Assembly (NCBI GenBank): GCA_031552815.1
Contig: JAVBMG010000003.1
Coordinates: 24,100 to 88,099 of the forward strand
Reading direction: 5' to 3'
Source: Opitutales bacterium
GTDB lineage: Bacteria > Verrucomicrobiota > Verrucomicrobiia > Opitutales > JAVBMG01
DNA: 64,000 nt
Part shown: one piece after another, positions 2,066 through 61,970 of the stretch
Layout: every line of letters starts with the position of its first letter
How positions within the stretch are numbered: the stretch's first letter is position 1
Translations under genes and position numbers: made by a program
Notes under the pieces: generated by a model
What the model was told of the DNA's origin: nothing
The model's input: the letters and a program-made list of their open reading frames with translations, nothing else
Database searches by the model: none

Positions 2066-4741
2066 TTACGGTTGCTGCGGCCAGTCGATTTCGAAGTCGT
2101 ATTTTCCGGAGAGAACGGCTTTTTTGCTTCCGTCCGGGAGCACTATGTCCGCGGTGGTATTCGGCGGAATGACGGTGTGCAGTTTAAACTTTCCGTTCGT
2201 TATTTCCCAGTGACTGAGAAGCTGTCCGTAGGGCGTATCCAATTCGGCTTGAGCAAAGGTAATACCTCCGCCGGGAACGGGTTGAATGAGCGATTTTTTG
2301 AAACCGGGTTCCACGGACGTTAATCCGCCGATGCGGGCATAGATCCATTCGCCGACAGCACCGTAGGCGTAGTGATTAAAGGAATTCATGCCGACATCGC
2401 CAAAGCCTTTGTCCTTTGTGTAGCTATTCCAGCGTTCCCACATGGTGGTGGCGCCCTGGTGGATTGAATAGAGCCAGCCGGGATAGGTTTCCTGCTTCAG
2501 CAATGTGAATGCGACGTCCTGTTTCCCGATGGCATCCAACGTGGGCATCATGATACCGGTTCCGACGAACCCGGTGGAGAGGTGCCAGTCGCGGGCGCGA
2601 ATGTCAGCCACCAGACGGTCGATTGCCTGCGGGCGTTTGTTTTCCGGAAGCAGGTCAAAGGCCAGGGCGAGCAGATAAACGGTCTGCGTGTTTCCGCTGA
2701 TGCTACCGTCCTCATGAACGAATTTTCTGATGAAGGCATTGCGCACAAAGCGGTGGAGTTCGCGGTATTTTTCCGCGTCGCTGTTTTTTCCGAGGATGGC
2801 GGCACTGCGCGCGAGAATGTCGGCGCAATGGGCAAAGTAAGCGGTTCCGACGAGCGCCTTGGGCGTATCGGTTTCATGGGGTGCCGGATTTCCCGGGCGG
2901 TCAAGCGCGAGCCAGTCGCCGAAGCCTTCCTCCGGACGGATGCCTTCGTTGGCTGTCGTTTTCATGTATTCGACCCAGGCTTTCATGGCATCATAGTTTT
3001 CTTCCAGGATACGGCGGTCACCGTATTGCTGGTAGATGACCCACGGTACCACGGTCACGGCATCCGCCCAGGCGGCTGCCCCGCGGTCATGCCAGTCCGG
3101 CTTTGCCGGGACGATGTGGGTGACGGCGCCGTCGGGAAATTGCGCGTCGCGCACGTCCTTCATCCATTTTTCAAAGAATGCGCGGACATCGTAATTAAAT
3201 GTGGCGGTCCGGGCGAAAATCTGGGCGTCGCCTGTCCAGCCGAGCCGTTCGTCGCGCTGCGGACAATCGGTCGGGACTTCAAGGAAGTTCCCGCGCTGTC
3301 CCCAGACGATATTGCTTTGCAGCCGGTTGACGAGCGGATCGGAACAGAAGAACTTCCCGGTTCTTGGCATGTCATTATGCAAGACGAGTCCCTGGATATG
3401 CTTTATGAAATCACTGCGTGCCTGGGCATTGTTGAGTAGTGATTCATCCTGAATGCCGCTTATGCCGATGTAGCGGAATCCGTGGAACGTAAAGGTCGGC
3501 GACCAGTCCATGTTACCGTCTTTGGCGAAAATATAGCTGTCGGTGCTTTTGGCGCTCCGCAGGTTGGCGGTGTAAAGGGTGCCGTCCTCGTTCAACATTT
3601 CCGCATAGCGGATGGTGAGTTTCTGTCCCTGCTTCCCGGGTAAGGTCAGCCTGAGGATGCCGACCATGTTCTGTCCGAAATCCAAAACCAGTTCACCGTT
3701 GGAGGCTTTACCGAGCAAGGCAGGATAAAGCGTTTCCACGGCGCGGACGGGTTGGGATACCTTGGCGATCAGCGTTTCGCCGCCTTCGGGGCAGACCTGG
3801 ACATTTTTCCATTGGCCGGCAGCATATCCGGCTTTGTTCCATCCGTCTATTTCACGGTTTGCGTCATAGTTTTCACCGTTGTAAAAATCGGAATCGAGGA
3901 TCGGGCCGGTGGAGACTTTCCAGTGTTCGTCGCTGTAAATACGATCGGTGCTCCCGTCGTCGTAAGTAAGATCCAGCCGGAGCTTCAGGGCGGGTTCCTT
4001 GCCGTAGGCATGCCTGGCGTTCTGGAAGAACATATACCCGGCATACCAGCCTTCGCCGAGAATCGTCCCGATGGCATTGTCGCCTGTCTTCAGGAGCGGG
4101 GTTACGTCGTAAACCAGGTATTGGTTGGTTTTGCGGTAATCGGTCCAGCCGGGGGTGAAATAATCGTTGCCGACCTGCGTTCCGTTTATCCAGGCCTGAA
4201 AGAGTCCCCGGGCAGTTACGTACAGGCGGGCGCGTGCAATGGGTTTTGAAACGGTGAATTCCTTGCGGAGATAGGCAGGAGCAAGGCTCTTACTGTAATC
4301 ACGCTCGGGGTGGGCAATCCATTTGGCTTCTTTCCAGGCGTCGTTTCCCATCAGCCCGGTTTCAAAATAGGCGCGTTCGCTCCATGCGGAGGCTTGGCCA
4401 TTCTGGTCCCAGTAACGGACTTGCCACGCGTAGCGGGTGGCAGGCCTGGGTGAAAACCCCCGGGCGGTAGCATCAACCGATTGCGCGGCATTGACCTTCT
4501 TGCTTTCCCAGACGGGTTTCCCGGATTGGTCGGTCGGCGCTATCTCAGATATCTTGAGTTCGTAGGCGGTTTGCGCGGAACCTTGGCCGCTTGCCAGCCA
4601 CCAGGAGAAGCGGGGTTCGGACACATCAATGCCGAGAGGATTGGCTTTATTCTCGACCAATAGGTGATAGGGCGCGGCAGCGTCCGCATGGGAAAAAGTC
4701 CAGGCCCAAAAGAGACTGAGGATGAAAACAAGATGCTTCAT
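2066..4741 (-). CDS. Alpha-L-rhamnosidase, GH78 family, secreted
   Basis: GH78 motifs PTDCPQRDERLGWTGD, GATTMWERWN, SFNHYAYG and LDFGQNMVG. Likely start MKHLVFILSLF at 4741 with a signal peptide. Confidence 0.92.
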   Translation of the reverse strand: MKHLVFILSLFWAWTFSHADAAAPYHLLVENKANPLGIDVSEPRFSWWLASGQGSAQTAYELKISEIAPTDQSGKPVWESKKVNAAQSVDATARGFSPRPATRYAWQVRYWDQNGQASAWSERAYFETGLMGNDAWKEAKWIAHPERDYSKSLAPAYLRKEFTVSKPIARARLYVTARGLFQAWINGTQVGNDYFTPGWTDYRKTNQYLVYDVTPLLKTGDNAIGTILGEGWYAGYMFFQNARHAYGKEPALKLRLDLTYDDGSTDRIYSDEHWKVSTGPILDSDFYNGENYDANREIDGWNKAGYAAGQWKNVQVCPEGGETLIAKVSQPVRAVETLYPALLGKASNGELVLDFGQNMVGILRLTLPGKQGQKLTIRYAEMLNEDGTLYTANLRSAKSTDSYIFAKDGNMDWSPTFTFHGFRYIGISGIQDESLLNNAQARSDFIKHIQGLVLHNDMPRTGKFFCSDPLVNRLQSNIVWGQRGNFLEVPTDCPQRDERLGWTGDAQIFARTATFNYDVRAFFEKWMKDVRDAQFPDGAVTHIVPAKPDWHDRGAAAWADAVTVVPWVIYQQYGDRRILEENYDAMKAWVEYMKTTANEGIRPEEGFGDWLALDRPGNPAPHETDTPKALVGTAYFAHCADILARSAAILGKNSDAEKYRELHRFVRNAFIRKFVHEDGSISGNTQTVYLLALAFDLLPENKRPQAIDRLVADIRARDWHLSTGFVGTGIMMPTLDAIGKQDVAFTLLKQETYPGWLYSIHQGATTMWERWNSYTKDKGFGDVGMNSFNHYAYGAVGEWIYARIGGLTSVEPGFKKSLIQPVPGGGITFAQAELDTPYGQLLSHWEITNGKFKLHTVIPPNTTADIVLPDGSKKAVLSGKYDFEIDWPQQP

Positions 4742-4857
4742 ATGGCAATATGGTTTATTTTTATGGTAAGAGACTGACATAATGGTAAGCATCTGCAACC
4801 GGGAATCGTTTCGCGGCGTTTAAAATAATATTCTGCCGAATTAATCATTGAAAACAT

Positions 4858-7029
4858 ATGCATGCAAAAATCATATCCCTTGTCGCCCTGATGGCTGTAC
4901 CGTTTTCGTGCGCGTTTGCACAGGAACGTTTACCGGAAAAGACCTCGTTCCAGGAAGCTGCGGGCTGGGAGGCGGATTACGATGTACGCTCCGACGTGGT
5001 GATGGTTTACGGCGTCAACAGCAGCTTTGAGAATCGCGTGAAGCTTTGGCGCGAAAAGGGCTATAACGTGCAGTTCATGACGGGGATCGCCTGGGGCGAA
5101 TACCAGGATTATTTCACGGGGAAGTTTGACGGCAAAACGCACTTTGAAGACGGTCAGGTCGAACGCAACGGGCAGACGATCTGGCACGGAAAGGATGTGC
5201 CTTACATCGTGCCGTCGGACGCGTTTCTTACCTATATGAAGTCATTAATCCGCCGGGTGATCGATGCGGGCATTGACACGATCTTTCTGGAAGAGCCTGA
5301 ATTCTGGGCACGTGCGGGTTACAGTGAGTCTTTCAAGAAGGAATGGGACAAGTATTATGGTTTTCCCTGGCAGGCGCAGCATGAGTCCCCGGAAGCAACG
5401 TATCTTTCGTCAAAACTGAAATATCATCTGTATTTCAAGGCCTTGCAGGAGGTTTTTCTTTATGCAAGGGCTTACGGCGAGACGAAAGGGATGAAGGTGC
5501 GCTGTTTCGTGCCCACGCATTCGTTGCTGAATTATTCGTCGTGGCAGATTGTCAGCCCGGAAGCGAGCCTGGCCGCGCTGGAGGGGATGGACGGTTACAT
5601 CGCGCAGGTCTGGACGGGAACCTCGCGCGAGCCGACTTATTTCAACGGTAGCATGAAGGAGCGTGTCTTTGAGAATGCCTTCCTTGAATACGGCAGCATG
5701 CTGTCGATGACCGCTCCCACGGGACGGAAAATGTATTTTCTGAGCGATCCGATTGAGGACCGGTCACGGACCTGGGATGATTACAAGAAAAACTACCAGG
5801 CTACGTTTACCGCGGAGCTGATGTATCCGTCGGTTGAAAACTTTGAGGTGATGCCTTGGCCGCGCCGTATTTATAAGGGCCGTTTCCCGGTAGCGGGTTC
5901 GGAGGAGCGCCAGCCGATTTCCCCGGCTTACGCGACGCAGATGCAGGTCATGGTGAATTCGCTCAATGCCATCCGTGCGTCCGATGACAGCATCGACGGC
6001 AGCGTGGGGATTGCCGTGCTGGTGGCGAACTCGATGATGTTCCAGCGCTTTCCGACGCATGCGGGTTACGAGGATCCGCGTTTGTCCAATTTCTACGGCA
6101 TGGCGCTTCCGTTGCTTAAACGGGGGATTCCGGTGCAGACGGTTCACATGGAAAACCTTGGGTTTTCGGAATCGCTCAGGCAGGTCAAGGTGTTAGTCAT
6201 GAGTTATGCGAACATGAAGCCGCCGTCCCGCGATGTGCATAAGCAGCTTGCCGCGTGGGTAAACAACGGCGGGGTCCTGATTTACTACGGACGCGACGAT
6301 GATCCTTTCCAGGGCGTGAAAGAATGGTGGAACAGCAACGGATTGAATCTGAAGCGGCCGTCGGACGATCTGTTTTCCCTCCTGAAACCGGATGCGGCAA
6401 AGCTGACGGATGTCCGGGAGCAGGGCTTTGCGTGCGGAAAGGGTTTTGTGTTTATTGTCAGGAAAGACCCGAAGGAATTAGTACTGGAAAAGGATAAGGA
6501 TGCTACCTTCCTGGAACAGGTGCGTTTGGCTTACGAGGAGAAAGCAAAGGCCGGAAAACTGGTTTTTAAAAATCATCTTTACCTGAAGCGCGGTCCTTAT
6601 GATGTGCTTGCCGTGATGGATGAAAGCGTCAGTAACGAACCTTTTACGGTACAAGGCCCTGTGATCGACCTGTTTGACCCGAAACTTCCGGTTTTGGAAA
6701 AGAAGACGGTAGCGTGCGGGGAGCAGGCCTATCTTTATAACCTGAACCGGATAACGGATAAGGACAGCATGCTGGTGTTGGCTTCGGCCTGCCGCGTCTA
6801 TGATGAAAAGAAAACGGAAGAGAGCTACCGCTTTGTGGCGAAGAGTCCGTCCAATACGCAGAATGCGATGCGGATACGCTTACCCAAGGCTCCGAAGGCA
6901 ATTACCGTTATCAATCCTGACGGGGATGCTGCCGAGGATGCGGAATATACCTGGGATGCTGCCAGCAGGACGCTATTCCTTTCCTTCCGGAATTACAGCG
7001 AGGGGGTTGAGGTCGAAATCGGATTCTAG
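4858..7029 (+). CDS. Uncharacterised secreted protein, probably glycoside hydrolase-like (barrel plus glutamine-amidotransferase-like domain)
   Basis: 723 aa, signal peptide ending AFA-QE, IFLEEPEFW acidic motif, 'LAAWVNNGGVLIY' resembling a GH42-type trimerisation domain; divergent from the GH78 gene. Confidence 0.6.
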   Translation: MHAKIISLVALMAVPFSCAFAQERLPEKTSFQEAAGWEADYDVRSDVVMVYGVNSSFENRVKLWREKGYNVQFMTGIAWGEYQDYFTGKFDGKTHFEDGQVERNGQTIWHGKDVPYIVPSDAFLTYMKSLIRRVIDAGIDTIFLEEPEFWARAGYSESFKKEWDKYYGFPWQAQHESPEATYLSSKLKYHLYFKALQEVFLYARAYGETKGMKVRCFVPTHSLLNYSSWQIVSPEASLAALEGMDGYIAQVWTGTSREPTYFNGSMKERVFENAFLEYGSMLSMTAPTGRKMYFLSDPIEDRSRTWDDYKKNYQATFTAELMYPSVENFEVMPWPRRIYKGRFPVAGSEERQPISPAYATQMQVMVNSLNAIRASDDSIDGSVGIAVLVANSMMFQRFPTHAGYEDPRLSNFYGMALPLLKRGIPVQTVHMENLGFSESLRQVKVLVMSYANMKPPSRDVHKQLAAWVNNGGVLIYYGRDDDPFQGVKEWWNSNGLNLKRPSDDLFSLLKPDAAKLTDVREQGFACGKGFVFIVRKDPKELVLEKDKDATFLEQVRLAYEEKAKAGKLVFKNHLYLKRGPYDVLAVMDESVSNEPFTVQGPVIDLFDPKLPVLEKKTVACGEQAYLYNLNRITDKDSMLVLASACRVYDEKKTEESYRFVAKSPSNTQNAMRIRLPKAPKAITVINPDGDAAEDAEYTWDAASRTLFLSFRNYSEGVEVEIGF

Positions 7030-7058: not shown

Positions 7059-9129
7059 TTAATTTCCTGCTGAGCTTTTCGGAACCTCGTTTCCGTGCAG
7101 TTCGATTTCCTGTATCCTGGCGATGCCATCGGCTCCGGGATCGTCTATGGAAATGCGTACGTATCGTGCCTTGAAGGGGTTTACTGTCCGGTCAACGATA
7201 TCCTCGGTGTTGTTGCGGACGCTGTCGATGTCTTTCCAGAACCTGGCATCCGAACTGATCTGAACGGTAAATGCCTTTGTGTTTAAGGTCTTGGGATGAT
7301 AAGCGGTTGCGGCGTTCTTGATGACGTAACGGCTGATGCTGTGCTCTGTCTTGAGGTCAATCCCAACCCAGTGTTTCCCTTTGCTTGCTGATTGCCAACC
7401 GGAGGTTAATGATCCGTCCACCAAATGGGACGGTTCATAATCCTTGGCTGTATTGGAGGCAAATGTCTCTGCCCTGAGCGCAACGTTGTAAGGCAGTGCG
7501 TTGTACTCGTTATGCAACATCATCAAATGATCCATCCTGACGATTTCAAGATCATCGCCGAATTCGGCTTTAAGATTATCAATCATTTTATTGACTTCTT
7601 TCATTCCCATTTCCCAGGCAACGGGCTGGGAAGCCCAGAACTCAGGCCGGCTTGGTTTCTTTCCGGCGGATTCTTTCCAGCGAAGGATGTGTTCCTTCAT
7701 TATCTTTTCATGCCGCGGAGCATCGCCGTCGTAACGCGGCGCGAGCAGAATCCGGGGTAGACGCCTGTTGAATACCTCAATCCGGGGTTGGTCTTTCATC
7801 GGTTCCTGGGCGGTTAGCCCGATCAGGGACTTTCCTTGCTGTTCGTAAATTTTTCCGAAAGCGGTCGGCAGCTTGTTCCAGATGGTGGCAACGGTAAATC
7901 CTGACTTGCTGAAATACGCATTGGTCAACTGTGCGTAGCGTTCAAAGGGTTCGCGAGCCCAGTATTGGGGATCGGTATAACCGAAGCCGGAAGGGCCAGA
8001 GACAATGCAATCATTGTCGCTTGCGGTCTTGTAGTAATAATTGAGCATCTGGGGAGCGGCGTCCAGCAGAGGGGGCGACATGGTCCAATTCATGGGGAAG
8101 GAGCCCCGCAGTTTGCTTGACCACAGGTTCTCGTTTGTTTTCAGGGAGTGTTCGCAGTATTGGAGGTTGTCTCCGTCGCTGAACACGAGGGCGAGATAGA
8201 ATTTGTTTTTCAATTCGGGTTTTGCGGGAACCGTCGGCACGGATAATTCTTTTGAGCAGGCGGCATATACGGTCATGTTCTCAAAGAAATCGGCGGGGAT
8301 GGTGGGGATACCGTATTTCGACGACTTGAAGATACCGTTGCCTTCATTCGGCCACCAGCCGAGATAATAGGTGCTGACGGGGGTATATTCTTTAAGGAAC
8401 TTGTTGATGTATTCCTCGTCGCGTGTACTTTTTTGTTTCCCTTTTTCATCGGGATCGGCGGAATTCGGATCGAACCAAACAACCATTGCCTTGGTTGCAA
8501 CCGCGAAATCGCGGAGGTGTGCGTGATGTGTGGTCGGCGATGATTACCCGCTTTGTGCAACGGGGCAAAAGTTTCTGATAGGCGTAATCGTAAGCTGCGT
8601 ATTTATCGGCAAACATCCCGTTGAAATCCTGAATGACTTTGAAACGGTACGGTTTTTCCTGCAGTGTCTTTGCGAGTTCGGGAGACACGATGAGCGCATC
8701 CTCGAGGCCGGCAAGGGTGGTCGCCAGGTTGACGGTAGCATCGACTTTCGGATCATAGACAACGAGTCCTTTGATTTCCCGTTTGTATTTTTCAATGATC
8801 TGGTACGGGTCGTTTTCCATTTTGTAACGGAGTCCCATGACTTCCGGCCATTGTTCCCGATTATTACCGTTATTTAACACGAGGAGCCGTGGCTGCTTTC
8901 TGTTCAATAATCCCTGCAACCCGACCATCATGGTCTGGACATCCTTGCTTTTGCCTTCTGCGTTTACGGCATCCAGATTTTTCGCAGGCCGGGCGAAATT
9001 GGGGAATACCTGATTGTCAGACCAGGTGATCCCTGTTTCCGGGATTGTGTTCTCATCGCTGTTTGTCTGCGCATGAGCGGCAAGCAGTGTTGCAATGAAG
9101 ACAATGAAGGATGCTAAGATTTTTCTCAT
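7059..9129 (-). pseudogene. GxGYxYP-family putative glycoside hydrolase with C-terminal F5/8 (CBM32-like) domain, split by a frameshift near 8535 (real lesion or assembly error)
   Basis: ORF 8446-9129 has the signal peptide and LQGLLNRKQPRL. The +1 frame continues PTTHHAHLRDFAVATKA into MVVWFDP of ORF 7059-8486, which has SDGDNLQY, GPSGFGYTDP and discoidin-type WVGIDL...ARYVRI...IQEIELHG. Confidence 0.75.
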
Positions 9130-9257: not shown

Positions 9258-9290
9258 AAAAAAAGCGGTAGCATGATGCTACCGCCTTTT
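9258..9290 (-). terminator. Intrinsic terminator made of two inverted copies of the motif
   Basis: AAAAAAAG-CGGTAGCAT-G-ATGCTACCG-CCTTTT; gives a U-tract on the minus strand after the stop at 9314. Confidence 0.85.
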
Positions 9291-12947: not shown

Positions 12948-14306
12948 ATGAAAAAACAAGTAGTTACTCGTAAGTTCATCAAGCCATCTTTCGATTATCT
13001 GATAACAAAGAAACGTGACGGAGGAGAATTCTCTGATGAGGAAATCCGGTATATTGTGGAATCCATCTATAATACCATGGATCCCAAATCGCCGGCTGAG
13101 TCCAAGATGCCGGATTACCAGATGTCGGCGCTTTGCATGGCCATTTATTTTAAGGGGATGTCTGCCCAGGAAACAGCAGTGCTTGCCGAGGAGATGATGC
13201 TTTCCGGTGAAGTGATCGACTTGTCAAAAATCAACAAGCCGAAGATTGAAAAATATTCCACCGGAGGAGTCGGAGACAAGACTTCGCTGGTGCTCGGACC
13301 CTTGGCGGTAGCATGCGGCGTTGTCATGCCGATGATGAACAGCGTCGATGAAGAGTTTCTTATTTCGAATCTGGATAAACTGGCTTCCATTCCGGGATTC
13401 AAGACGCAATTGGACTTCAAGGATTTCTCTAACCAGTTGCGTACACTGGGTGTGGCGATGTGTGCCCAGGATGACCAGATTGCTCCCGTCGAGCGCATTA
13501 TTCATGAGATGCGCCGCAAGACAGGTACGATCCCGAGTTTGCCGCTTATTACCAGCAGTGTGCTGAGCAAGAAATTTGCGCAGGGTGCGGAAGGTATCGT
13601 TGTCGACGTGAAGTGGGGCAATGGTTCTTACATCAGTGATCTTGAACAGGCTACCTTGCTGGCCCGTTCCATTACCCGCGTAAGCCGTTCAATGGAAAAG
13701 CGTTGCGTTGCGTTGGTAACGGACATGAATCAGCCGTTTGGCGATTGTGTCGGTACTGCGCTGGAAATACAGGAAGCGATCAAGTTGCTTAAGGGCGAAG
13801 GCCCGGAAGACCTGAAGGAACTGGTCTTGCGTTTGGGTATGGAAATTGTCCGTCTGGCCGGAGTTGCCGGTTCGACGCTTTCCGCGCGCCAAACGGTGGA
13901 AAGCCGCTTGCAGGACGGCAGTGCGCTTGAAGTCTTTAAGCAAATGGTGAAGATGCAGGGAGGCGATGCCAGCTACATTGACAATCCTGAGAAATTCCCG
14001 AAAGCAAAGTATGTCCGTAAATTGCCTTCACCGAAACGCGGTTATGTGCATTCCATCAATGCGGGAATGATTGCCCGAGGCGTGAAAATGCTTTCAACCG
14101 ATGACAAGGGCAAGGTGGATTATACTGCGGGTGTCACTGAGATCAAGAAGGTCGGTGCGCAGATGAAGCAAGGGGAGCCATTGATGATGATTCATTACAA
14201 TGATGAAAGCCGTCTGGATTCCGCATTGGAGTATTTGCGTCAGGCTTACCGTTTGGCTCCGAAGCGTCCGAACTCTCCCCAGTTGATTGTGGAGCGTGTT
14301 GCCTAA
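12948..14306 (+). CDS. Thymidine/pyrimidine-nucleoside phosphorylase-family protein with altered active-site motifs
   Basis: KKRDG, STGGVGDK, LSKK, DVKWGNG, LVTDMNQP motifs present. Canonical DKHS reads EKYS and the SGRGLGHTGGT loop reads NSVDEEFLISN. Confidence 0.85.
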   Translation: MKKQVVTRKFIKPSFDYLITKKRDGGEFSDEEIRYIVESIYNTMDPKSPAESKMPDYQMSALCMAIYFKGMSAQETAVLAEEMMLSGEVIDLSKINKPKIEKYSTGGVGDKTSLVLGPLAVACGVVMPMMNSVDEEFLISNLDKLASIPGFKTQLDFKDFSNQLRTLGVAMCAQDDQIAPVERIIHEMRRKTGTIPSLPLITSSVLSKKFAQGAEGIVVDVKWGNGSYISDLEQATLLARSITRVSRSMEKRCVALVTDMNQPFGDCVGTALEIQEAIKLLKGEGPEDLKELVLRLGMEIVRLAGVAGSTLSARQTVESRLQDGSALEVFKQMVKMQGGDASYIDNPEKFPKAKYVRKLPSPKRGYVHSINAGMIARGVKMLSTDDKGKVDYTAGVTEIKKVGAQMKQGEPLMMIHYNDESRLDSALEYLRQAYRLAPKRPNSPQLIVERVA

Positions 14307-14354: not shown

Positions 14355-14394
14355 CGGTTGCCGTGTAAAAGTATGCTACCGGGTACTATTGGGG

Positions 14395-17300
14395 TTATCC
14401 GATTTTCGCTTCTTCGGCCTGTCCGGTTTCACGGTTGAAGCGCATGGAAATCAGGCGTGTCACACCGCGTTCCTGCATGGTGGCTCCATATATATTGTCC
14501 GCGGTTGCTATGGTGCGCTTGCTGTGGCTGACGACAAGGAATTGCGAATACTGGGTGAACTGGCGGACCATGTCGGTAAAGCGGCCGATATTGGCTTCGT
14601 CCAGCGGTGCGTCCAATTCGTCGAGTACGCAGAAGGGTGAAGGTTTTACCATATAAATGGCGAAAAGCAATGCTACCGCCGTCATGGTTTTCTGCCCGCC
14701 GCTGAGCAATGTCAGGCTGCGTAATTTTGTACCGGGAGGCCGCGCGATGATTTCGATACCGGAATCAAGCGGGTCTTCGGTGGTAAGCAACTGGAGGTCG
14801 GCAAAACCGCCGCCGAATAACTTTTCGAAGGTGAAATGGAAATTCTTGCGGATTTGTTCAAAGGTGTTCTGGAAAAGCTGCAGTGAAGTTTTATTGATTT
14901 CATCAATGGCCTTAAGCAATTCTTCCTTTGATTTCCAAAGGTCGTCACTTTGCGTTTTGAGAAAATTGTAGCGTTCGCGCAACTCTACGTATTCGGCGAT
15001 GGCGTTAAGATTGACGGAATCGGACATGGACAGCACCTTTTCACGAAGTACCTTGATTTCTTCGGCTATCGGTACCCAATCGGTGTGATCCATTGCTGCA
15101 AAGTCCTCATCGGTCGGATCACCGCGATGTTTGGCTTTTGCCTCGGGTTCACCGTCTTCGAGTTCGTCAAGATTGACGCGTGTAACAAATTCGGTATCTG
15201 CTTCCCAAAGTTCTTTTTTCCATGCTACCGTTGCGATGTCTATCTGATAGTCGGTCTGGAATTTTTCCTGGATAAAGCTGCGTTGATTGCGTTCTCCTGC
15301 CAGGGAAATCTCTACCTTGCTCAATACTCCCGTAAGTTCCTGAACCTGATCGCGTTCTCCCGAAATGCTTTGTTCCTTTTCAGCAACCTGGGCGGTGATT
15401 TCATCGTATTCCTTTTTTTCCTGAAGAAGGAGTGTCTGGAGCATTTCGAGTTGCAGGGCGAGTTCGGATGCCTTGGATTGGTAAGCGGCTGCCTGCTGCT
15501 GCGATTCGGCGATCTGTGCGCGTACGCGGTCAAGTTCCTGACTGAGGCGGGCAACCCGGTTGATTGTCTCGGCTTTCTGTTGCTGGATTTCGGATAATCC
15601 GCGCTCAATGATTTCAAGACGTTGTTTTTTCTCCTGAAGATCAAAGCGTACGGCGGAAAGCGATTCCCGGCGTTGGTCGAGGTCAAGGCGGAGCGTGGTT
15701 ATTTTTAATTCAAATTCACTGATACGCGCTTTCTTCTCCTCAATGTTCCTTTCTGCTTCCGCAAGGGTTCCTTGCGCTTCCTGGAGTTTCTGGCGTGAAC
15801 TTTCTCCGGAGTATTCGAAGTCCGAGAGGTCTTTCTCACTTTTTTCTCTCTCTCTGTTATTTTGTTCGAGTTGCTGCTGAACGCCTTTTTCTTCTGCTTG
15901 CAGCGTGGAGATTTCCTGTCCGATTTCAACGGTGAGCTGGCGGCGTTCCTCAATTTTGTTTTCTGTCCCGGTCAGCTCGTTTTGTAGTTTTTCCCGTTGT
16001 TCGTGAAGTGCATCAAGAATTTTTTGCTTCTCGGTGATTTCCTGCTTAAGGGTACGAATGTCGTTCTGTCTTTGGAGGAAGGAGGCATTGCTGCCGCCTT
16101 TACCTTTGCCGCCGTAAACCAGTCCGCGCCTGTCCAGCAGTTCTCCGTTTTGCGTGGCAACGAACAGGAATTCAAAGGCAGGATTTTCTTTCCAGAAATC
16201 AAGGAAATGATCGAGTGTGTCGCAAAAATAGCAGTGAGCGGTAAAACGCGAGAGGGCATCTTTCAGGGACTCGTTGCTGGTGCTGACCTTTGTTTTAACG
16301 GCAGCGATGAATTCGGGCAGCGCGGTTACATGACCAGTTTGTGCCCCGGGAACGGATGGTATCTGAAGGCTGGCTTTCCCGTATTCATTGCGTGAGAGTT
16401 CGCGGAATACGGCTGAGGCGCTGATATTGTCCTGTATGACGAGTGTGTCCGCTGCGCCGCTGAGCAATGCTTCCATTGCGGAAGTATATGTGCTAGGGAT
16501 GATAAGATCCTGGGAAAGCAGTCTGCAGGCATCCGGCGGTAGCGTGTCCTGCAATTTTCCTTTCAGAATGGCTTTTGCGCCTTCGCTGAAACCTTCCATT
16601 TTCTCCTGGAGATCTTCAAGGAGTTTTAGCTGGGCTGTCCGGCGGGTGAGTTCGCGGTCCTGATTTTGCAGATCGCTTTGGAGTTGCCTGAATTGGGTAA
16701 GAAGATCGGTCAGCGCTTTTTTATCCAGAGCAAGTGTTTCCTGTTCGCGTGCGTTTTCGCTTTGTCTGATTTCCAGTGTTTTCCTGATTTCAGCGAGTTC
16801 CTGTTCCTTTGATTGGCGTTCGTTGTTGAGTTTGTAAAGCTGTTCGCTAAGGGTTGCGTGTCTTTCCTGGTATTTGCTGAGCTCGACTTCGATGCTTGTG
16901 CAATTGGAGCGAAGGCGCGTAATGCTGCCTTCGTACATGAGCAATTCCTGACGGGCTTCGTTCCAGCTTTGTTCCGTGGTCTTCAGTTCGCTCTGCTGGG
17001 AATTGAGTTCCTCATTGCGTTTCTTTACGATCTCATCGGAAGAACCGACCAGGTTGAGCTGTTCCTGTTTAAAGGAGGTGTTGTCTGCCGCTTTTTTGTC
17101 GAGAGCATCGCGGTAACTCAGGATCTCCGCAATTTCCGTTTCAATCTCGGCAATGCGGTTTTGAAGATCGTTACAGCGTGTTTCCAGCAGATATTTGCTT
17201 TGTACTTCGGCATTTTCCTTTTCGGAGCGAAGATCAAAAATTCCCTGCTGGCGGTTTTGTATGTTTGCGTTGAGTTCGCTGAGCCGAGCCCTAAGGCCTG

Positions 17301-18348: not shown

Positions 18349-19107
18349 ATGAACAATGATACAGAAAAATACCCATCGCTTGCCAAGCCAAGATTGAGTC
18401 ATACAGTTACGCAGTCTATTTTAGATGCTATTAAAGCTGGTGCGTATAAGCGCGGCGATAAACTGCCTTCTGAAGAATTTCTTTCGCAGGAATATAAAGT
18501 AAGCAGAACGGTTGTCCGGGAATCAATAAAGCAACTGGAAGCGCTTGGTATTTTACAGACAATTACTGGAAGCGGCAGTTATGTGCGATCCCTGGAATTC
18601 CAACAATTGGAACGACTATTCAGTCTTTTCCTGGTGTTGGCTCCCGACCATACTACCGTACTTGAGCTCTTTGATTTACGCGCAACGGTTGAAGTATATG
18701 CGGTACAATTACTGGCAAGAAGAAATGAGGACATTTCCCTGCGTCCGCTGGAGTTCGAACTCAAGACAATGAAAGAAATCATGGATAAAAGGGATAAATC
18801 CAAGGAAAAGGATGCTGATTATTATACCAGGATAGTAGGCCATGTGGAAGCTTTTCACCGGGCCATTGTGGATGCTACCGGCAATAAATTATTCCGTGCG
18901 GTTGTGTTTGCGTTTATTGAAAACTGGAAAAGTATTTATGGCTTCCCGGAACGTTACTCGGCGGATTTTCCGAATACTCTGTTTCAACAAATGGAATCCA
19001 TTTATCAGGCTATACGACAGGGAGATGCCAATGAGGCTGGGAAGGGTATGAAGCTTTATATGCGTGATGTGAGGGAATATGTTTATGCGGGAACCTTTCT
19101 TGGCTAA
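18349..19107 (+). CDS. GntR/FadR-family transcriptional regulator, copy 1
   Basis: wHTH GDKLPSEEFLSQEYKVSRTVVRE and FCD-type C-terminus FHRAIVDATGN. Confidence 0.93.
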   Translation: MNNDTEKYPSLAKPRLSHTVTQSILDAIKAGAYKRGDKLPSEEFLSQEYKVSRTVVRESIKQLEALGILQTITGSGSYVRSLEFQQLERLFSLFLVLAPDHTTVLELFDLRATVEVYAVQLLARRNEDISLRPLEFELKTMKEIMDKRDKSKEKDADYYTRIVGHVEAFHRAIVDATGNKLFRAVVFAFIENWKSIYGFPERYSADFPNTLFQQMESIYQAIRQGDANEAGKGMKLYMRDVREYVYAGTFLG

Positions 19108-47758: not shown

Positions 47759-47791
47759 TAAAAAAAGACGGTAGCATCACTACCGTCTTTT
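47759..47791. terminator. Bidirectional terminator containing the motif
   Basis: AAAAAAAGACGGTAG-CATCA-CTACCGTCTTTT between convergent genes. Confidence 0.85.
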
Positions 47792-50964: not shown

Positions 50965-51651
50965 TTAACGCTCTGCGAGGATAATGAACGGCAGGGCGAT
51001 AAGAACGGCGATGATGACGATTGCGAGGAACAAAAAAAGTACATTGCACAAGGCTTTCCAGAACCCGAATTCCTGTGCGGCAGAAAGACATTTTATAAAA
51101 ACAAAAAAGGTCCACAGATCCAAAATGACAATGGCAGAACGGATGATGATAAGCGGTAATGTCCATACCGCCGGTTCCCCGACAGCATTGACCCAGACAA
51201 AAGCGGTACTGTCGTCCGGTAGCATTTGTTTATGTAAGGAAATGCTGAAGTTATCTCCGTATACAATGAATGCAGGGATGATTATCAATAAGGCCCATAT
51301 TCGGATTATGCTGCTCCATCCGATGGCAAAGCGGATATCGCGGGCGCTGCCTTTTCCTCCAAGCCATTCCCCGGTAATTTTTAATATCCATGAAGACAGG
51401 TACAGACCGATGATTCCGGACATGAACGAATAGAAAAGAATAGCAAGGACATCGATGAGGTTGCTCAGGCGCAAATCACTGCGTTGAAATAAGACCATTC
51501 CGATGCTGCCTAATGTGACCAACGGAATCAATGTAATGTCCATTTTCTCTCCGGAAAATCCCCTGGATTTATTCAGTATCCGGCGCATGGTTGACCTGGG
51601 TCGGATAAACATGAAAATCCAAGGATTTATAGATTTTTTCTCGGGAGTCAT
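50965..51651 (-). CDS. Yip1-family membrane protein
   Basis: NPWIFMFIRPRSTMRRIL start, about five TM helices, WLGGKGS..IKCLSAAQEF. Confidence 0.75.
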   Translation of the reverse strand: MTPEKKSINPWIFMFIRPRSTMRRILNKSRGFSGEKMDITLIPLVTLGSIGMVLFQRSDLRLSNLIDVLAILFYSFMSGIIGLYLSSWILKITGEWLGGKGSARDIRFAIGWSSIIRIWALLIIIPAFIVYGDNFSISLHKQMLPDDSTAFVWVNAVGEPAVWTLPLIIIRSAIVILDLWTFFVFIKCLSAAQEFGFWKALCNVLFLFLAIVIIAVLIALPFIILAER

Positions 51652-51700: not shown

Positions 51701-52450
51701 TTAAAATCGAAGAAACATGAATACGAGGACAAACGGAAGCATGACGATTTCGATGAAGAGAATGCCAAGGATCACGCTGAAAAATGCGCGCCAGGTACCG
51801 AAGCGTTGCGCTTCGGCAAGGCATTTGAGAAAAGCGACAATCGCCCAGATAACCATGATGGTGATCACTGACTGTATGATTTGAAGCATGATGGAAGGTT
51901 CTGCCTGTGTTGTGCTTTGCTGCGTCGAAAGTATCTGAAACAGGGCGTCGGGATCACTGATGGAGTTCAGCATTTCAAAACCGAACTGTGATTTGGGAAA
52001 CAATTCCTGTCCGAAAATAAGGTAGGACGGGATAATCAATGCTACCATCCACACGGCGATAATATTGCTCCAGGTCAATGCCAGCAATACCTCGCGCGTT
52101 GAGGCCTGTCCTCCCAGGATTCTTCCGCTCCATTTAAAAACGAATGCGAGTACATAGAGGAATCCGGCGGCAAAAAATATGAGTCCCAATGCTACCGCGG
52201 CGAGAATAACCGATGTCTGGATGCGCTCGGTGAGCGTCGCGCTGTTTTGCAGCATGGTGTTTATGGTGAGAACAACAGCAAAGAGAAGCACGACAACAAA
52301 GATTTTGCTGTCAGGGGCATTTTTATTCTCGTCTAAAATCTGACGCATGGTTTTACGCGGTCTTACCCACATGGAGAACCAAGGATTCAGTTTTTCTTGC
52401 GAAGGTTGCAGAACGGCATCATTTTCGCCGTGCGTATCATCCTTTTTCAT
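51701..52450 (-). CDS. Yip1-family membrane protein (tandem paralog)
   Basis: NPWFSMWVRPRKTMRQIL, ILGGQAS, LKCLAEAQRF. Confidence 0.75.
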   Translation of the reverse strand: MKKDDTHGENDAVLQPSQEKLNPWFSMWVRPRKTMRQILDENKNAPDSKIFVVVLLFAVVLTINTMLQNSATLTERIQTSVILAAVALGLIFFAAGFLYVLAFVFKWSGRILGGQASTREVLLALTWSNIIAVWMVALIIPSYLIFGQELFPKSQFGFEMLNSISDPDALFQILSTQQSTTQAEPSIMLQIIQSVITIMVIWAIVAFLKCLAEAQRFGTWRAFFSVILGILFIEIVMLPFVLVFMFLRF

Positions 52451-52614: not shown

Positions 52615-53895
52615 ATGCCTGAGTTTAATTTATTTTTAAGCATTGCCTTGGCCTTACTATTGACACGGGTTTTGTGTCAGCTTGTCCTGAACCGGTTAAA
52701 CATGGCTTTTGTAAGGAAGCATGAACATGCGATACCGGAGTCATTCCGCGCAACAATGGACATGGATACTTATAAAAAGGCGGTAGCATACACGCTTGCC
52801 AAAGGCCGTTTTTCGGCGGTGAGTACGATCTTCGACGCGTTTGTTTTATTGTTTGTTTTATTTAGCGGATTGTTGCCGCGTGCTTACGAATGCCTGAGCG
52901 GTCTCCTGGGTTATGGCGTATGGGCGCAGTCGGGCATATTGATCATCATTGCGGTTGTGATCGGATTACTTGATTTACCTTTGGAGCTTTGGGAAACATT
53001 CCGATTGGAAGATAAATTCGGATTCAATAAAATGACCGTGAAATTGTGGATCGCCGACAAGATCAAGGGAGCGATTATCGGATTGGTGTTGGCGCTTCCT
53101 TTGCTGGCCATGCTTTTATGGGTGTTTAAATCATTACCGGATACTTGGTGGATCTGGGGATTCGGCCTGTTTTTTTCTTTCCAGCTTATCATGATGGTTG
53201 TTTATCCCATGTGGATCATGCCGCTCTTCAATAAATTTGAACCGTTACCGGAAGGAGAACTGCGCAATGCGTTGATCGCTCTCGGCGACAAAACCGGATT
53301 CAGGTCAAAGACCATTTTAGTGATGGATGGCAGCAAGCGTTCAGGGCATTCCAACGCATTTTTTACGGGATTCGGACGCTATCGCCGGATCGTGCTTTTT
53401 GATACGCTTGTTGAGCAACTGACAACTAAGGAACTGGAAGCAGTTCTTGCCCATGAAATTGGCCATTACAAGTGCGGGCATATCCCGAAAATGTTAATCC
53501 GGGCTGCTGTTTTCGGTTTGGCCTTGTTTGCGGTCCTGGGATGGCTGGTGAAACAGGCGTGGTTTGCCGGTAGCTTTGGATTTCATGTTGCCGCCAATGC
53601 AGACGGTAGCACGATGAGTCTGGTTCCGTCACTCTTCCTTTTTTCCGTGCTGAGCGGACTTGTCTTCTTTTGGATAAATCCCTTGATGAACGGCATTTCG
53701 CGTAAGCATGAGTACGAGGCGGATGCTTTTGCGAAAAAAGCATTGGACGGCGATCCGCAGCCATTGATCGGGGCATTGCGGAAGTTATCCAAGGAAAACC
53801 TGAGCAATTTGACGCCTGCTCCGCTCTACAGTGCATTTTATTATTCGCACCCGACGTTATTTGAGCGCGAAAATGCCTTGTTAACACAGGAATAG
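52615..53895 (+). CDS. M48 (Ste24p-like) membrane metallopeptidase
   Basis: DGSKRSGHSNAFFTG, RIVLFDTL, HEIGH, EYEAD, YSHP. Confidence 0.92.
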   Translation: MPEFNLFLSIALALLLTRVLCQLVLNRLNMAFVRKHEHAIPESFRATMDMDTYKKAVAYTLAKGRFSAVSTIFDAFVLLFVLFSGLLPRAYECLSGLLGYGVWAQSGILIIIAVVIGLLDLPLELWETFRLEDKFGFNKMTVKLWIADKIKGAIIGLVLALPLLAMLLWVFKSLPDTWWIWGFGLFFSFQLIMMVVYPMWIMPLFNKFEPLPEGELRNALIALGDKTGFRSKTILVMDGSKRSGHSNAFFTGFGRYRRIVLFDTLVEQLTTKELEAVLAHEIGHYKCGHIPKMLIRAAVFGLALFAVLGWLVKQAWFAGSFGFHVAANADGSTMSLVPSLFLFSVLSGLVFFWINPLMNGISRKHEYEADAFAKKALDGDPQPLIGALRKLSKENLSNLTPAPLYSAFYYSHPTLFERENALLTQE

Positions 53896-59450: not shown

Positions 59451-60359
59451 TCAGTCTTTCCTGCTACCGTGTCTTGCGAGTTGGTAGGAATTCCAGAGAT
59501 TGTGGCAGATCACGTAAAAGGTCGGGCCAAGTGCGATAAAGGGTGAGAAGAATGTGAGGGCGACCCATAAGGTGAGCATGGTGTTTTTTTGGCCCAGCGA
59601 CTGGCTGCATTCCCGACGGAACTCCTTCTCGCCAAGAAAGAACCCAAGCACGAAATTGATGACGCAGAAAGCCGATGCTACCGCGAAAACCATGATGATG
59701 GCTTTCAGGGGGACATCGGCTTGTCTCAGAAAATGCGAACATTGGGAAAGGACAAGAAACAATACCAGTACCCAGGCGGGAAACGTCAATCGCTTTGTCC
59801 GTTGGATGATGCCTGTTTGCCCGGACGGCAGCATGCGGATCGCCCGTGACAGGACAAATGGGATACCTACCATCATTCCGCAGTAAAGCAGCAGTTTGCC
59901 GAAATCAATGCTGACTGATGCGTGGACGACTGTTTGGGAAAGGAAAGGAATCGCCAGCGCCGCGTAAATATTGCTCAGGATCATACTGGTTGCCACATAG
60001 TCGCCGCGCCTGCCAAGCATGTTGGTTATGACCATGGCGGCGGTGGCTGTCGGAGTGATACCGATGAGAAACGCAGAAATTGCCAGTTCGGCATGAAAGG
60101 ATTTTAGTAAGTAATAAGCGCCGATGCTTAGTGCCGACATCGCAATCAGGATAAGCAGATGACTTTTCTTTACCGAACCCTTGCTGAAAGAAGTATCGGA
60201 AAACGACATCAGCAGCATGAAGAATATCAGGGCCGGTATGGCGTAAGCGCCCAAGGCATGTGCCTGCGGGAAAACAGCGCCGAGGGACATCGCAAGGATA
60301 ATGGCCAGCGTGCGCTTGGTCGAAACCTCCAGCTTATGAATGAACGCAGGCAGTTTCAT
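59451..60359 (-). CDS. Bile acid:sodium symporter-like membrane transporter
   Basis: About nine TM helices, PTATAAMVIT..LG, QSLGQKNT, LGPTFYVICHNLWNS. Confidence 0.75.
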   Translation of the reverse strand: MKLPAFIHKLEVSTKRTLAIILAMSLGAVFPQAHALGAYAIPALIFFMLLMSFSDTSFSKGSVKKSHLLILIAMSALSIGAYYLLKSFHAELAISAFLIGITPTATAAMVITNMLGRRGDYVATSMILSNIYAALAIPFLSQTVVHASVSIDFGKLLLYCGMMVGIPFVLSRAIRMLPSGQTGIIQRTKRLTFPAWVLVLFLVLSQCSHFLRQADVPLKAIIMVFAVASAFCVINFVLGFFLGEKEFRRECSQSLGQKNTMLTLWVALTFFSPFIALGPTFYVICHNLWNSYQLARHGSRKD

Positions 60360-60366
60360 CGGTAAA

Positions 60367-61359
60367 TCATCTGTTCGGTAAAACCCGTTTGGCGCACAAT
60401 ACCTGGAACGCATGACCCATCTGCATGAGTAATGTCTTTATCCGTTGGGTTTCCGGATCCGGTTTTTCGGCGGTAGCATGAATGATTGTTTCAAGCAGCG
60501 TTGCCGCGTGTCGCATGAAGAAAGGACCCTGTCTGCCCAGGTCAATAGCGTGGAACCCGTGCTGTTTCAACAGCGAAGATACCTGGTCCCAGCAGACGTG
60601 AAACGTGATGTCCTGCTGTCCCGGATCTTCCAGCAGATCGTTTCCCTGGCGGTGCTTTTGGTAAGTGCGTGCAGTTCCTTCCGGCGTATGTTCGAGCAGT
60701 TCGGCAAGGCTTTTGCCGTAGTCGAACGTGATGAATAGACCTTCCCAGGGGGCCTGCAGTATCTCATTGAGCACGCTACCGTTCAGGTTTGGCAGATCCA
60801 GTTGATAGGCTTCGGAAACCGGTTCGCCGATAGGCAGGGAAGACAGTAAATCCCGTGCGCTTTCAGTCGGTTCAGCGAGCAGGCATTCCCTGAACCTGCC
60901 TTCCGCATCCAGGTAAATGCCGCGTTCCCGCCAGGCGTCCTGATGGGAAACGAAGCGGTGAAAGGGTAATGCGTCGATCAGTTCATTGGAAAAGACAATC
61001 GCCTTGGAGGGAATGGAAATCCGTTCCCCGTAACGTAGCGTAAGCACCTGCGGAAAGGGATGTGTGATGCCTGAGAGCACGGATGTTCCCGTATCCGATC
61101 CGATTTCGACAAACGTAAAATCGGAAAGCGCTTCGTCCATGATATGTTCAAGGGATGCTACCAGCAGTTTGGCAAACGTCTTTTCCATGCTGAGTGACGT
61201 ATAGAAATCCGTATCCCGATGCATGCCGATGCGATTCTTCGCTTGCCGGTAGTATCCCGATTCAGGATCGTAAAGCGCGTAATCGATGAAATCACGGTAG
61301 CTTACCGGAACCTGTGTTCCGAAATGCCGGGCAAAGCGTTCTGTGAAGGAAAGGCTCAC
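60367..61359 (-). CDS. SAM-dependent methyltransferase, MidA/NDUFAF7 family
   Basis: FIDYALYDPESGYY, DFYTS, FSNELIDALP, FDYG, PGQQDITFHV. Confidence 0.85.
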   Translation of the reverse strand: MSLSFTERFARHFGTQVPVSYRDFIDYALYDPESGYYRQAKNRIGMHRDTDFYTSLSMEKTFAKLLVASLEHIMDEALSDFTFVEIGSDTGTSVLSGITHPFPQVLTLRYGERISIPSKAIVFSNELIDALPFHRFVSHQDAWRERGIYLDAEGRFRECLLAEPTESARDLLSSLPIGEPVSEAYQLDLPNLNGSVLNEILQAPWEGLFITFDYGKSLAELLEHTPEGTARTYQKHRQGNDLLEDPGQQDITFHVCWDQVSSLLKQHGFHAIDLGRQGPFFMRHAATLLETIIHATAEKPDPETQRIKTLLMQMGHAFQVLCAKRVLPNR

Positions 61360-61361
61360 GT

Positions 61362-61970
61362 TTACTCCTGCGGGCGGTAAGTGTACGCATGGCAGAGAGC
61401 GGTTGCTATCGCATCCGATTCGTCGTCGGGCAAAGCCGCTGTCAGTCCGAGAATACTCTGTACCATTCCCGCAACCTGTTCCTTGCTTGCTCTTCCGTAA
61501 CCGACAACCGCCTGTTTTACACGGAGCGGCGGGTATTCAAAGACTTCCATGTCCAGAACCGAAACCGCGGCCATGGCGGCGCCCCGGGCGGAACCGAGGA
61601 TTTGTGCCGTTTGAAAATTCTGGACATAAATCGTCTGTTCGACGGCGGCATGGCGGACCTTGTATTTTTTCATGGCTTCGCTCACCCGGATGAAAATACG
61701 TCCCAGGCAGGTTGCCATGCTTTGTGTCGGCGGTATGCTGATCGTTTCGCTGGCCAGGAGTTTTGGCGGCTTGCCTGCCTGGAATTCCAGCACCGCCAGA
61801 CCTGTCGCACGCAGGCTCGGGTCAATGCCGATAATCACTCCTTCGTAAGGAACACGGTTGAAACGGGAATCCGTTCTTGCCGTCTCTTTGTTTCCTTTCC
61901 GTTTGGCGGTAGCATCCGCTTCATTGTTTATGAAGTTTGCCCATAACTGTCTTGAGGATTTGCGTGCCAT
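61362..61970 (-). CDS. ruvC: Holliday junction resolvase RuvC with N-terminal extension
   Basis: IIGIDPS, AVEQ, GSARG, EYPP..VKQAVVGYGRASKEQV, DESDAIATALCH. Confidence 0.95.
   Translation of the reverse strand: MARKSSRQLWANFINNEADATAKRKGNKETARTDSRFNRVPYEGVIIGIDPSLRATGLAVLEFQAGKPPKLLASETISIPPTQSMATCLGRIFIRVSEAMKKYKVRHAAVEQTIYVQNFQTAQILGSARGAAMAAVSVLDMEVFEYPPLRVKQAVVGYGRASKEQVAGMVQSILGLTAALPDDESDAIATALCHAYTYRPQE

Follow-up and report, generated by a model that had tools for sequence, protein, structure and literature searches.

Why does a single nonpalindromic 9-mer recur dozens of times within one short piece of a bacterial chromosome? The window analyzed here is a stretch of 64,000 nucleotides (G000:C12:24100-88099) from an assembly of 2,491,257 bases in 17 contigs, and the word in question, ATGCTACCG, was proposed in the initial annotation as a candidate DNA uptake sequence (DUS), that is, as a self-DNA recognition signal for natural transformation comparable to the DUS of Neisseriaceae and the uptake signal sequence (USS) of Pasteurellaceae. 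By analogy with these two systems, we hold with moderate confidence that ATGCTACCG is a lineage-specific DUS/USS-like signal that is kept in the genome by biased uptake and homologous recombination. The word matches the two known families in abundance, strand use, and placement, and less clearly in its thinning in atypical DNA; this pattern suggests that the lineage may favor its own DNA in natural transformation. None of the computational checks that the initial annotation had named as possible refutations told against the proposal, which stays at the moderate confidence just given.

A hyperabundant word throughout the genome

A recount of the window reproduced the 37 exact copies of the initial annotation at their coordinates, between positions 2700 and 61915, with 15 copies on the forward strand and 22 present as the complement. 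In 100 dinucleotide-preserving shuffles of the window, the word appeared 0.30 times on average and never more than twice. The complete assembly contains 1316 copies (621 forward and 695 reverse; 0.53 per kb), which makes ATGCTACCG the commonest 9-mer of the genome, at about 67 times the mean 9-mer count. For comparison, the median 9-mer occurs 15 times, the 99.9th percentile lies at 138 copies, and the top word unrelated to ATGCTACCG reaches 256; the commonest genomic 8-mer is TGCTACCG.

The spread of the copies, which had been noted for the window, extends to the genome. Densities range from 0.46 to 0.68 per kb on 16 of the 17 contigs, comprising all those longer than 5 kb, and there are zero copies on the 4.5-kb contig C16. 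Counts per 20 kb have a mean of 10.7 and a variance of 13.8, the gaps between copies are distributed near-exponentially (mean 1824, median 1184, coefficient of variation [CV] 1.16), and, with low-complexity words excluded, ATGCTACCG is the top 9-mer in 98 of 116 chunks of 20 kb. Per-contig densities and 20-kb counts rule out a regional motif restricted to a single chromosomal domain.

Anatomy, variants, and strand use

In the window, ATGCTACCG is followed on its 3' side by C 19 times, by T 13 times, by G 5 times, and never by A, which reproduces the pyrimidine preference (32 of 37) originally described. When all 1316 genomic copies are aligned, the information in the flanks is confined to positions -2 to +2, with A at -2 at a frequency of 0.06, T at -1 at 0.09, a pyrimidine at +1 at 0.88, and C at +2 at 0.56, while every position farther out carries at most 0.03 bit. 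The extended consensus is accordingly [not A][not T]ATGCTACCG[C/T][C], and since the flanks are uninformative beyond these two bases on either side, no longer repeat unit surrounds the word.

Around this sharp peak lies a cloud of one-off variants. The transition variants listed initially are all real (eight sites of ATGTTACCG and five of ATGCTGCCG), and the window holds even more of them, 14 and 11, respectively. Across the genome, changes are tolerated at positions 2, 4, and 6 (T>A 214, T>C 129, C>T 591, C>A 225, C>G 125, and A>G 386 copies), whereas positions 1, 3, and 5 and, most of all, 7 to 9 are strict, with 4 to 81 copies for each change within the CCG. The word may hence be written as A.G.T.CCG, with six strict and three alternating tolerant positions. 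Mean copy numbers fall from 93 for words at a Hamming distance of 1 to 23.8 at a distance of 2 and about 19.5 at distances of at least 3, a combination of peak and variant cloud that we would expect as the outcome of a balance between drive and mutation.

Chi and the FtsK-orienting polar sequences (KOPS) or architecture-imparting sequences (AIMS) are likewise over-represented 8- to 9-mers, and RecC is encoded in this genome. Motifs of these classes are strongly co-oriented with replication. With 20-kb windows oriented by GC skew, 762 of 1312 copies (58.1%) have their complement CGGTAGCAT on the G-rich strand, a raw bias that looked suggestive of a Chi- or KOPS-like polar motif. However, other 9-mers of equal base composition, when pooled, are found on this strand in 56.2% of cases, and 40% of the 1009 composition-matched words with at least 30 copies each are at least as skewed as ATGCTACCG. 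The bias is therefore compositional, the polar motif was rejected, and the replichore polarity that the initial annotation had raised as a concern does not go beyond that of matched words.

Placement in coding sequence

Genes were mapped in a crude manner, as the longest nonoverlapping open reading frames (ORFs) of at least 100 aa (1838 ORFs, 90% coverage), so that starts and small genes are approximate and intergenic tallies amount to 268 or 262 copies depending on the criteria used. On this map, 1048 copies fall entirely within ORFs, and the other 268 are either intergenic or overlap an ORF boundary, placing 80% of all copies within coding sequence. Five of the six reading frames are occupied (83, 368, and 35 copies in the sense frames; 0, 313, and 249 in the antisense frames), and the empty antisense frame is the one that would read TAG. 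The peptides most often encoded are D-A-T-V, D-A-T-A, D-G-S-I, T-V-A-S, and A-V-A-S, and as there are several different ones, no single peptide accounts for the word.

Shuffling synonymous codons within each gene, which keeps both the proteins and the per-gene codon usage, left 58.4 +/- 7.5 copies (maximum of 71 in 30 runs) compared to 1051 observed in ORFs, and a codon permutation null yielded 15.8 +/- 4.7. The enrichment thus persists under the codon-preserving shuffle that had been suggested as a check, indicating a property of the DNA rather than of the proteins.

Intergenic copies and terminator-like hairpins

Outside ORFs, the density of ATGCTACCG is about 2.2 times that in coding sequence, and it differs with the orientation of the neighboring genes, amounting to 1.67 per kb between convergent, 1.07 between co-directional, and 0.66 between divergent genes. 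Of the 262 intergenic copies, 130 can pair with an inverted copy that lies no more than 45 nt away and differs at 2 positions or fewer, as opposed to 148 of the 1054 coding copies, the latter being near the chance level of about 10% by our own estimate. Fifty of these hairpin copies are located between convergent genes and 10 between divergent genes. Where two exact copies lie within 60 nt of each other, the stem-forming order of complement followed by motif prevails (32 pairs, compared to 9 in the opposite order and 13 direct repeats), and many stem-forming pairs are flanked by an A-run and a T-run. Six hairpins of the window, folded as RNA, reach -16.9 to -28.0 kcal/mol (z from -3.0 to -8.5) and are followed by U-runs. 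In these predicted structures, the inverted pairs of ATGCTACCG resemble intrinsic terminators, several of them bidirectional.

Similar features appear in the available text of studies on the two known families, where about half of the DUS/USS copies are assigned to predicted terminators (10.1101/2025.10.24.684340), inverted-repeat terminators made from DUS or USS are described (10.1101/2025.10.24.684340; PMC13020248; PMC1852404), and frames that would yield stop codons are reported to be avoided (10.1101/2025.10.24.684340; PMC1852404). Terminator-like inverted pairs are one of two DUS/USS hallmarks present here that the initial annotation had not drawn on, the other, less clear-cut one being the thinning of the word in atypical DNA.

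Scarcity in atypical DNA

To measure this thinning, the motif was masked for the calculation of tetranucleotide atypicality. The most typical quartile of the genome carries 3.07 copies per 5 kb and the most atypical tenth carries 1.59 (Spearman correlation of -0.24), and the longest ATGCTACCG-free stretches tend to have low GC. Two of them, C11:414967-428012 (GC of 0.364) and C9:179328-189450 (GC of 0.380), encode a nucleotidyl transferase, an epimerase, GT4 glycosyltransferases, and an EpsG polymerase; C14:74600-86830 encodes a Wzz/tyrosine-kinase-type protein; C11:52514-61768 (9.3 kb) encodes HipA, two C5 methylases, a BpuJI-like nuclease, and Vsr; C3:130859-143478 contains one of the three genomic Phage_integrase matches, the other two being on C10; and C10:193767-206338 contains the operon from PilM to the secretin. 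A foreign origin of such islands is suggested by their composition only.

In the HipA island, the two C5 cytosine methylases flank the BpuJI-like nuclease, with Vsr following them and the HipA kinase upstream (G000:C11:53641-57487, corresponding to L205:3642-7488). Separately, an ORF of 4954 aa at G000:C4:77861-92725 lies in two adjoining motif-free gaps of 16.9 and 10.7 kb, which are split by one copy at C4:83064.

Distribution in the order and a second word

The host probably belongs to Opitutales, as judged from the labels of the relatives of its phosphoenolpyruvate carboxykinase (PEPCK) gene, the nearest of which (65 to 71% identity) are mostly labeled Opitutales, Opitutaceae, Coraliomargaritaceae, or Puniceicoccaceae. 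These labels also bear out the placement in Verrucomicrobiota made from the window at the outset. ATGCTACCG is not enriched in the 400 other genomes of the order (132 other genera), where it occurs at most 44 times, no more often than the reversed control. A scan of viral contigs from IMG/VR with the inverted pair returned two contigs (L206:1613-1631 and L207:11988-12006), each with one exact pair and no further copy; we dismissed them as a signal, as by our own rough estimate this is about what chance would yield for 18 specified bases in such a collection.

A second and unrelated word, GCGGGAACG (core CGGGAACG), was found to pack four PEPCK loci from other metagenome-assembled genomes (L034 to L037). 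Among the 401 genomes scanned, GCGGGAACG reaches hyperabundance in a single genus, g56 of family f30, where 13 genomes (G058, G081, G102, G123, G141, G159, G175, G191, G220, G258, G289, G297, and G348) hold 3060 to 5581 copies in 1.6 to 2.2 Mb, or about 1.6 to 3.3 per kb. The 8-bp core CGGGAACG reaches 101 to 104 copies per 20 kb in G123, about 5 per kb. Intermediate numbers (732 to 760 copies) are found in G234, G354, and G366, and these roughly 730 to 760 copies in three species may reflect a shift of dialect or decay. All 385 other genomes, including those of other f30 genera, have at most 238 copies, and the genome studied here has 35. Like ATGCTACCG, this word occurs on both strands with uninformative flanks, some of its inverted pairs look terminator-like, and many of its positions are common to two species (coordinates of L035 compared with those of L037). 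In genomes of family f17 (e.g., G170, G230, and G074), GCGGGAACG occurs about 2 to 8 times as often as the reversed control (e.g., 234 compared to 30 copies), far under the level of g56.

Samples of 20 kb or shorter from 40 other genomes of the order, with low-complexity words filtered out before ranking, revealed no further dispersed hyperabundant 9-mer. Four samples with at least 10 copies of a word were not counted as dispersed because a spacing of 48 to 147 nt marks them as tandem or CRISPR-like arrays. Hyperabundant words of this kind are therefore rare in the order, yet they have arisen at least twice, with unrelated sequences. At the level of 8-mers, CGAGATCG occurs 21 times in the first 20 kb of a contig from a genome with 66% GC (L238, G032:C1:1-20000; 10 copies on the plus and 11 on the minus strand, with a median spacing of 787). 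This could be a weaker instance of the phenomenon or simply follow from base composition.

Uptake machinery and a possible mechanism

The initial annotation had advised a search for uptake genes. In this search, type IV pilus genes, ComEC, and DprA proved to be encoded in the genome, whereas ComEA was not found. ComEC is 546 aa long, and DprA scores above the NCBIfam equivalog cutoff. There are three secretins, one of which has TPR repeats and adjoins PilM, four PilB/GspE-like ATPases slightly under their equivalog cutoffs, three PilT/PilU-family ATPases above the curated cutoff, and one PilC/GspF protein. Twelve proteins carry a prepilin N terminus. For the ten prepilin-like proteins scanned with NCBIfam models, the matches were confined to the N-terminal domain or to models such as GspG and GspI, with one GspG above the cutoff in a pseudopilin cluster; no ComP-like pilin was recognized among them. 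Five prepilin-like proteins clustered on contig C11 (220 to 223.5 kb) had no family-model match past the prepilin N-terminal domain.

With these components, uptake could proceed as follows. Double-stranded DNA bearing the motif would be bound at the surface or in the periplasm by a receptor, probably one of the pilin-like subunits of the type IV pilus machinery. Retraction by PilT would draw this DNA through a secretin, a single strand would enter via ComEC, and DprA would load it for the recombination that follows. Fragments with the motif would be taken up and recombined more often, and the motif and its one-off variants would build up by molecular drive wherever they are tolerated. Such a drive, limited by tolerance, would explain why five frames are used and the stop-codon frame is avoided, and it would likewise explain the gaps at the most constrained operon and at foreign-looking islands as well as the recruitment of pairs to terminator stems. 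Transformability of the cells, a preference of their uptake for the motif, and the identity of the protein that recognizes it belong to the inferred part of this model.

The two known families offer close parallels. The DUS of Neisseriaceae, which is read by the minor pilin ComP, is also a short, nonpalindromic, hyperabundant word on both strands of genic and intergenic DNA, with inverted pairs in terminator stems, avoidance of stop frames, and specificity for a lineage, and it likewise goes with a type IV pilus, PilT, ComEC, and DprA. It differs in its unrelated sequence and its occurrence in another phylum. DUS density in Neisseria is roughly 1 per kb, about twice that of ATGCTACCG (0.53 per kb). 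No ComEA or ComP-like pilin was detected in the genome studied here. The proportion in hairpins differs, too, at about half of the copies in predicted terminators for DUS in the available text of one study (10.1101/2025.10.24.684340) compared to about 10% for ATGCTACCG. The USS of Pasteurellaceae, for which ComN is a predicted receptor, resembles ATGCTACCG in several ways: its core has 9 bp, a genome of about 2 Mb holds more than 1000 copies, one-off variants surround it, most copies are intragenic, and inverted pairs occur in terminators. In contrast to ATGCTACCG, whose flanks carry no information, it has AT-rich flanking segments. The likeness to the USS that the initial annotation had seen in a GCGGT pentamer comes down to five shared letters, present only if the flanking base of ATGCTACCG is G, and lends no support to homology.

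Several observations weigh against an uptake signal. On the side of the machinery, Competence, the channel domain, is the sole Pfam domain of ComEC, and the search for ComEA (HHH_3 and TIGR00426) matched only a Tex protein, which lies under the curated cutoff of TIGR00426. PilT-family genes are present in 41 of 41 f30 genomes (39 above the cutoff), with or without the g56 word, so that pilus genes do not discriminate motif-bearing genomes within this family and the machinery is a permissive condition rather than specific evidence. As for the word itself, intergenic hairpins hold just about 10% of all copies (130 of 1316). In addition, its longest gap, C17:24589-53375 (28.8 kb, GC of 0.424), is the core region of ribosomal proteins, SecY, and RpoA, in which ORFs of 1265, 1381, and 719 aa are putatively rpoB, rpoC, and fusA, as judged solely by their size and position. 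Given that this core region is free of ATGCTACCG, the absence of the word is no clean marker of foreign DNA, even if its scarcity in the most constrained core operon as well as in foreign-looking DNA fits an accumulation limited by tolerance. The lineage itself is a further difficulty, as this genome is the sole member of its family and genus among the genomes compared, and the best match to its SMC protein in metagenome contigs has 51% identity, in a scan outside of which very near records may lie.

Alternative explanations

The main rival explanation, which we find doubtful, is that ATGCTACCG is the footprint not of surface uptake but of some other nonpolar sequence-specific process. Mismatch repair or gene conversion biased by the motif would be candidates, as would a methylation-linked word comparable to the highly iterated palindrome 1 (HIP1) of cyanobacteria, or a self-tag for a nuclease, recombination, or defense system. 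The genomic statistics show DNA-level drive or selection, and none of them singles out uptake. HIP1, moreover, as far as the available text describes it, exemplifies a hyperabundant 8-mer that is tied to methylases (PMC13756078), and the genome studied here has Vsr beside two C5 methylases and a BpuJI-like nuclease, along with RecC. What keeps this explanation alive is that no ComEA was detected, that this Vsr/methylase island is present, and that the g56 word is so dense, making up by our own arithmetic 2.6 to 4% of the DNA, compared to the up to about 2% of the chromosome that DUS/USS are stated to occupy (10.1101/2025.10.24.684340). However, the island itself lies within a ATGCTACCG-free stretch and so looks acquired. 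Vsr-type repair acts on methylase sites of 4 to 6 bp with about twofold enrichments, a scale that falls short of a 67-fold excess over nine contiguous bases; with the island motif free and such repair not known to specify nine bases, a Vsr-driven enrichment is unlikely. In its nonpolar distribution ATGCTACCG is unlike Chi, and its recruitment to terminator stems and thinning in atypical DNA match the particular pattern described for uptake sequences. HIP1 is similar in being a hyperabundant short word found across genes, but it is a palindrome recognized by the methylases DmtA and DmtC, and in the available text it is now itself proposed to act in DNA uptake and transformation, as a cyanobacterial analogue of uptake sequences (PMC13756078). 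A palindromic word of the HIP1 type is ruled out by the asymmetric sequence of ATGCTACCG itself.

A broader variant of this idea, which we rate as rather unlikely, would regard both ATGCTACCG and GCGGGAACG not as classical uptake signals but as the footprint of an undescribed, sequence-directed process of genome homogenization or self-tagging that operates without ComEA and can write a word into up to about 4% of a genome.

Alternatively, an abundant protein associated with the chromosome could bind ATGCTACCG, for example a nucleoid protein particular to this lineage or a global regulator, and the word would then be kept by selection for chromosome organization. Strand symmetry and even spread would suit such a role, the strict and tolerant positions of A.G.T.CCG could mirror protein contacts, and the inverted pairs could bind a dimer. 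Nonetheless, we judge this to be improbable: 80% of the copies are single intragenic sites, termination is indicated by the A-runs and T-runs alongside the stems and by the surplus of copies between convergent genes, the spacing is near-exponential (CV of 1.16), and the gaps at the ribosomal operon and at the islands fit a tolerance-limited drive better than an organized spacing. We know of no nucleoid protein with more than 1000 exact 9-bp sites at a 67-fold enrichment.

A descent of the copies from a small mobile element, or from a terminator hairpin that spread through the genome, similar to repetitive extragenic palindromic (REP) sequences or miniature inverted-repeat transposable elements (MITEs), seems very improbable. 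In its favor, inverted pairs with a conserved stem exist at about 32 or more places in the genome, and some copies lie in intergenic hairpins, a trait shared with REP sequences, MITEs, and bacterial interspersed mosaic elements (BIMEs). Unlike these repeats, ATGCTACCG has no conserved unit beyond about 13 bases. Its flanks are random past 2 bases, which led us to reject a MITE or REP unit and settles the concern, voiced at the outset, that the word might belong to a longer repeat. Moreover, 1054 of the 1316 copies are in coding sequence, where they occupy five reading frames and where their 148 inverted partners are near chance.

Finally, we give practically no chance to the excess being a side effect of codon usage, amino-acid composition, or a repeated peptide, since, although the encoded peptides are dominated by alanine, threonine, valine, glycine, and serine codons and three window copies stem from three paralogous regulators, the synonymous shuffle (58 copies compared to 1051 seen) already refutes it and the word is denser outside genes and uses both strands and five frames.

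Novelty and significance

Recent surveys treat uptake sequences as a trait of Neisseriaceae and Pasteurellaceae (10.1101/2025.10.24.684340; PMC13020248); within the literature searched, these two families of Proteobacteria are the only ones with established cases, HIP1 being a recent candidate. Our literature search, which covered material other than supplementary files, returned nothing connecting uptake sequences with Verrucomicrobia or Opitutales and nothing on iterated words in Verrucomicrobia, and among the matches listed, hits to the motif strings looked incidental by title and abstract (e.g., primers). If the uptake interpretation holds, ATGCTACCG is a known kind of signal in another phylum, with a word of its own and probably a new receptor. 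Together with GCGGGAACG, it would then add a third and a fourth independent case, both in Verrucomicrobiota, and imply that self-preferring uptake, or another drive that writes words into genomes, evolves repeatedly. Hyperabundant words would further serve as a sequence-only marker of natural transformation in uncultured lineages, provide new pairs of receptor and motif for study, and offer a genetic handle for Opitutales by way of adding the motif to donor DNA. In practical terms, ATGCTACCG labels many predicted terminators and helps to tell native from acquired DNA, within the limit noted above for its absence.

Copies in the window

The individual copies illustrate this mixture of placements; strands in parentheses after a copy refer to the motif. 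Six sites of the window are hairpins. A perfect inverted pair at 9266..9284, formed by copies 9266- and 9276+, lies between two genes, is bordered by A- and T-runs, and is terminator-like at -28 kcal/mol (z of -8.5). Copy 23291- has an inverted partner at 23301 with 2 mismatches (23291..23309) and a T-run, 3' of gene 22131-23267(+) (-18.3 kcal/mol, z of -5.8), and copy 25779- has one at 25790 with 1 mismatch (25779..25798) between convergent genes (-27.7 kcal/mol, z of -8.0). Partners with 1 mismatch also accompany the intergenic copy 37481- (at 37491; 37481..37499; -16.9 kcal/mol, z of -5.0) and copy 41087- (at 41101; 41087..41109), the latter directly 3' of gene 38168-41074(+) (-23.1 kcal/mol, z of -3.0). 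The sixth, 47769..47777(-), sits in a hairpin with a T-run (-19.4 kcal/mol, z of -6.9) and lies between gene 46017-47741(+) and the PEPCK gene convergent with it, 47813-49612(-). Two further copies are intergenic, namely, 14373..14381(+), between the convergent genes 12879-14306(+) and 14395-18108(-), and 51217..51225(-), which is without a close partner.

Several genes carry more than one copy. The alpha-L-rhamnosidase gene 2066-4798(-) has an antisense copy at 2700..2708(+) and a sense copy encoding D-A-T-A at 4465..4473(-), and the SMC gene 14395-18108(-) has two antisense copies, at 14670..14678(+) and 15222..15230(+). Four copies fall within coding sequence 25824-28403(-), three in sense (26456..26464, 27326..27334, and 28314..28322, all on the minus strand, the last in frame 0 as M-L-P) and one in antisense (27674..27682, plus strand). 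The M16 peptidase gene 38168-41074(+) holds an antisense copy at 39312..39320(-) and sense copies at 39678..39686(+) and 40137..40145(+), and coding sequence 29817-30872(-) holds one sense copy at 30224..30232(-) and one antisense copy at 30551..30559(+).

Single sense copies are located at 8733..8741(-) in coding sequence 8446-9129(-), where the word encodes D-A-T-V, at 36130..36138(-) in 35240-36340(-), at 60471..60479(-) in 60367-61359(-), and at 61907..61915(-) in 61362-61979(-). Single antisense copies are found at 5646..5654(-) in 4858-7029(+), 13306..13314(-) in 12879-14306(+), 32639..32647(-) in 32305-33837(+), 36664..36672(+) in 36374-37405(-), 41603..41611(-) in the radical-SAM gene 41211-42593(+), 52189..52197(+) in 51701-52450(-), 52781..52789(-) in ORF 52600-53895(+), and 59675..59683(+) in 59451-60413(-). 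Four ORFs of the window, 4858-7029, 23371-25755, 43069-44550, and 46017-47741 (723, 794, 493, and 574 aa), had no Pfam match at an E value of 0.001 or lower.

The three remaining copies belong to tandem GntR/FCD paralogues of 252, 257, and 252 aa (window positions 18349-21362). The motif lies in sense at the equivalent place in all three, as D-A-T-G, at 18872..18880(+) in the first, 20111..20119(+) in the second, and 21127..21135(+) in the third, and these genes supply three of the five window copies that have G as the 3' base.

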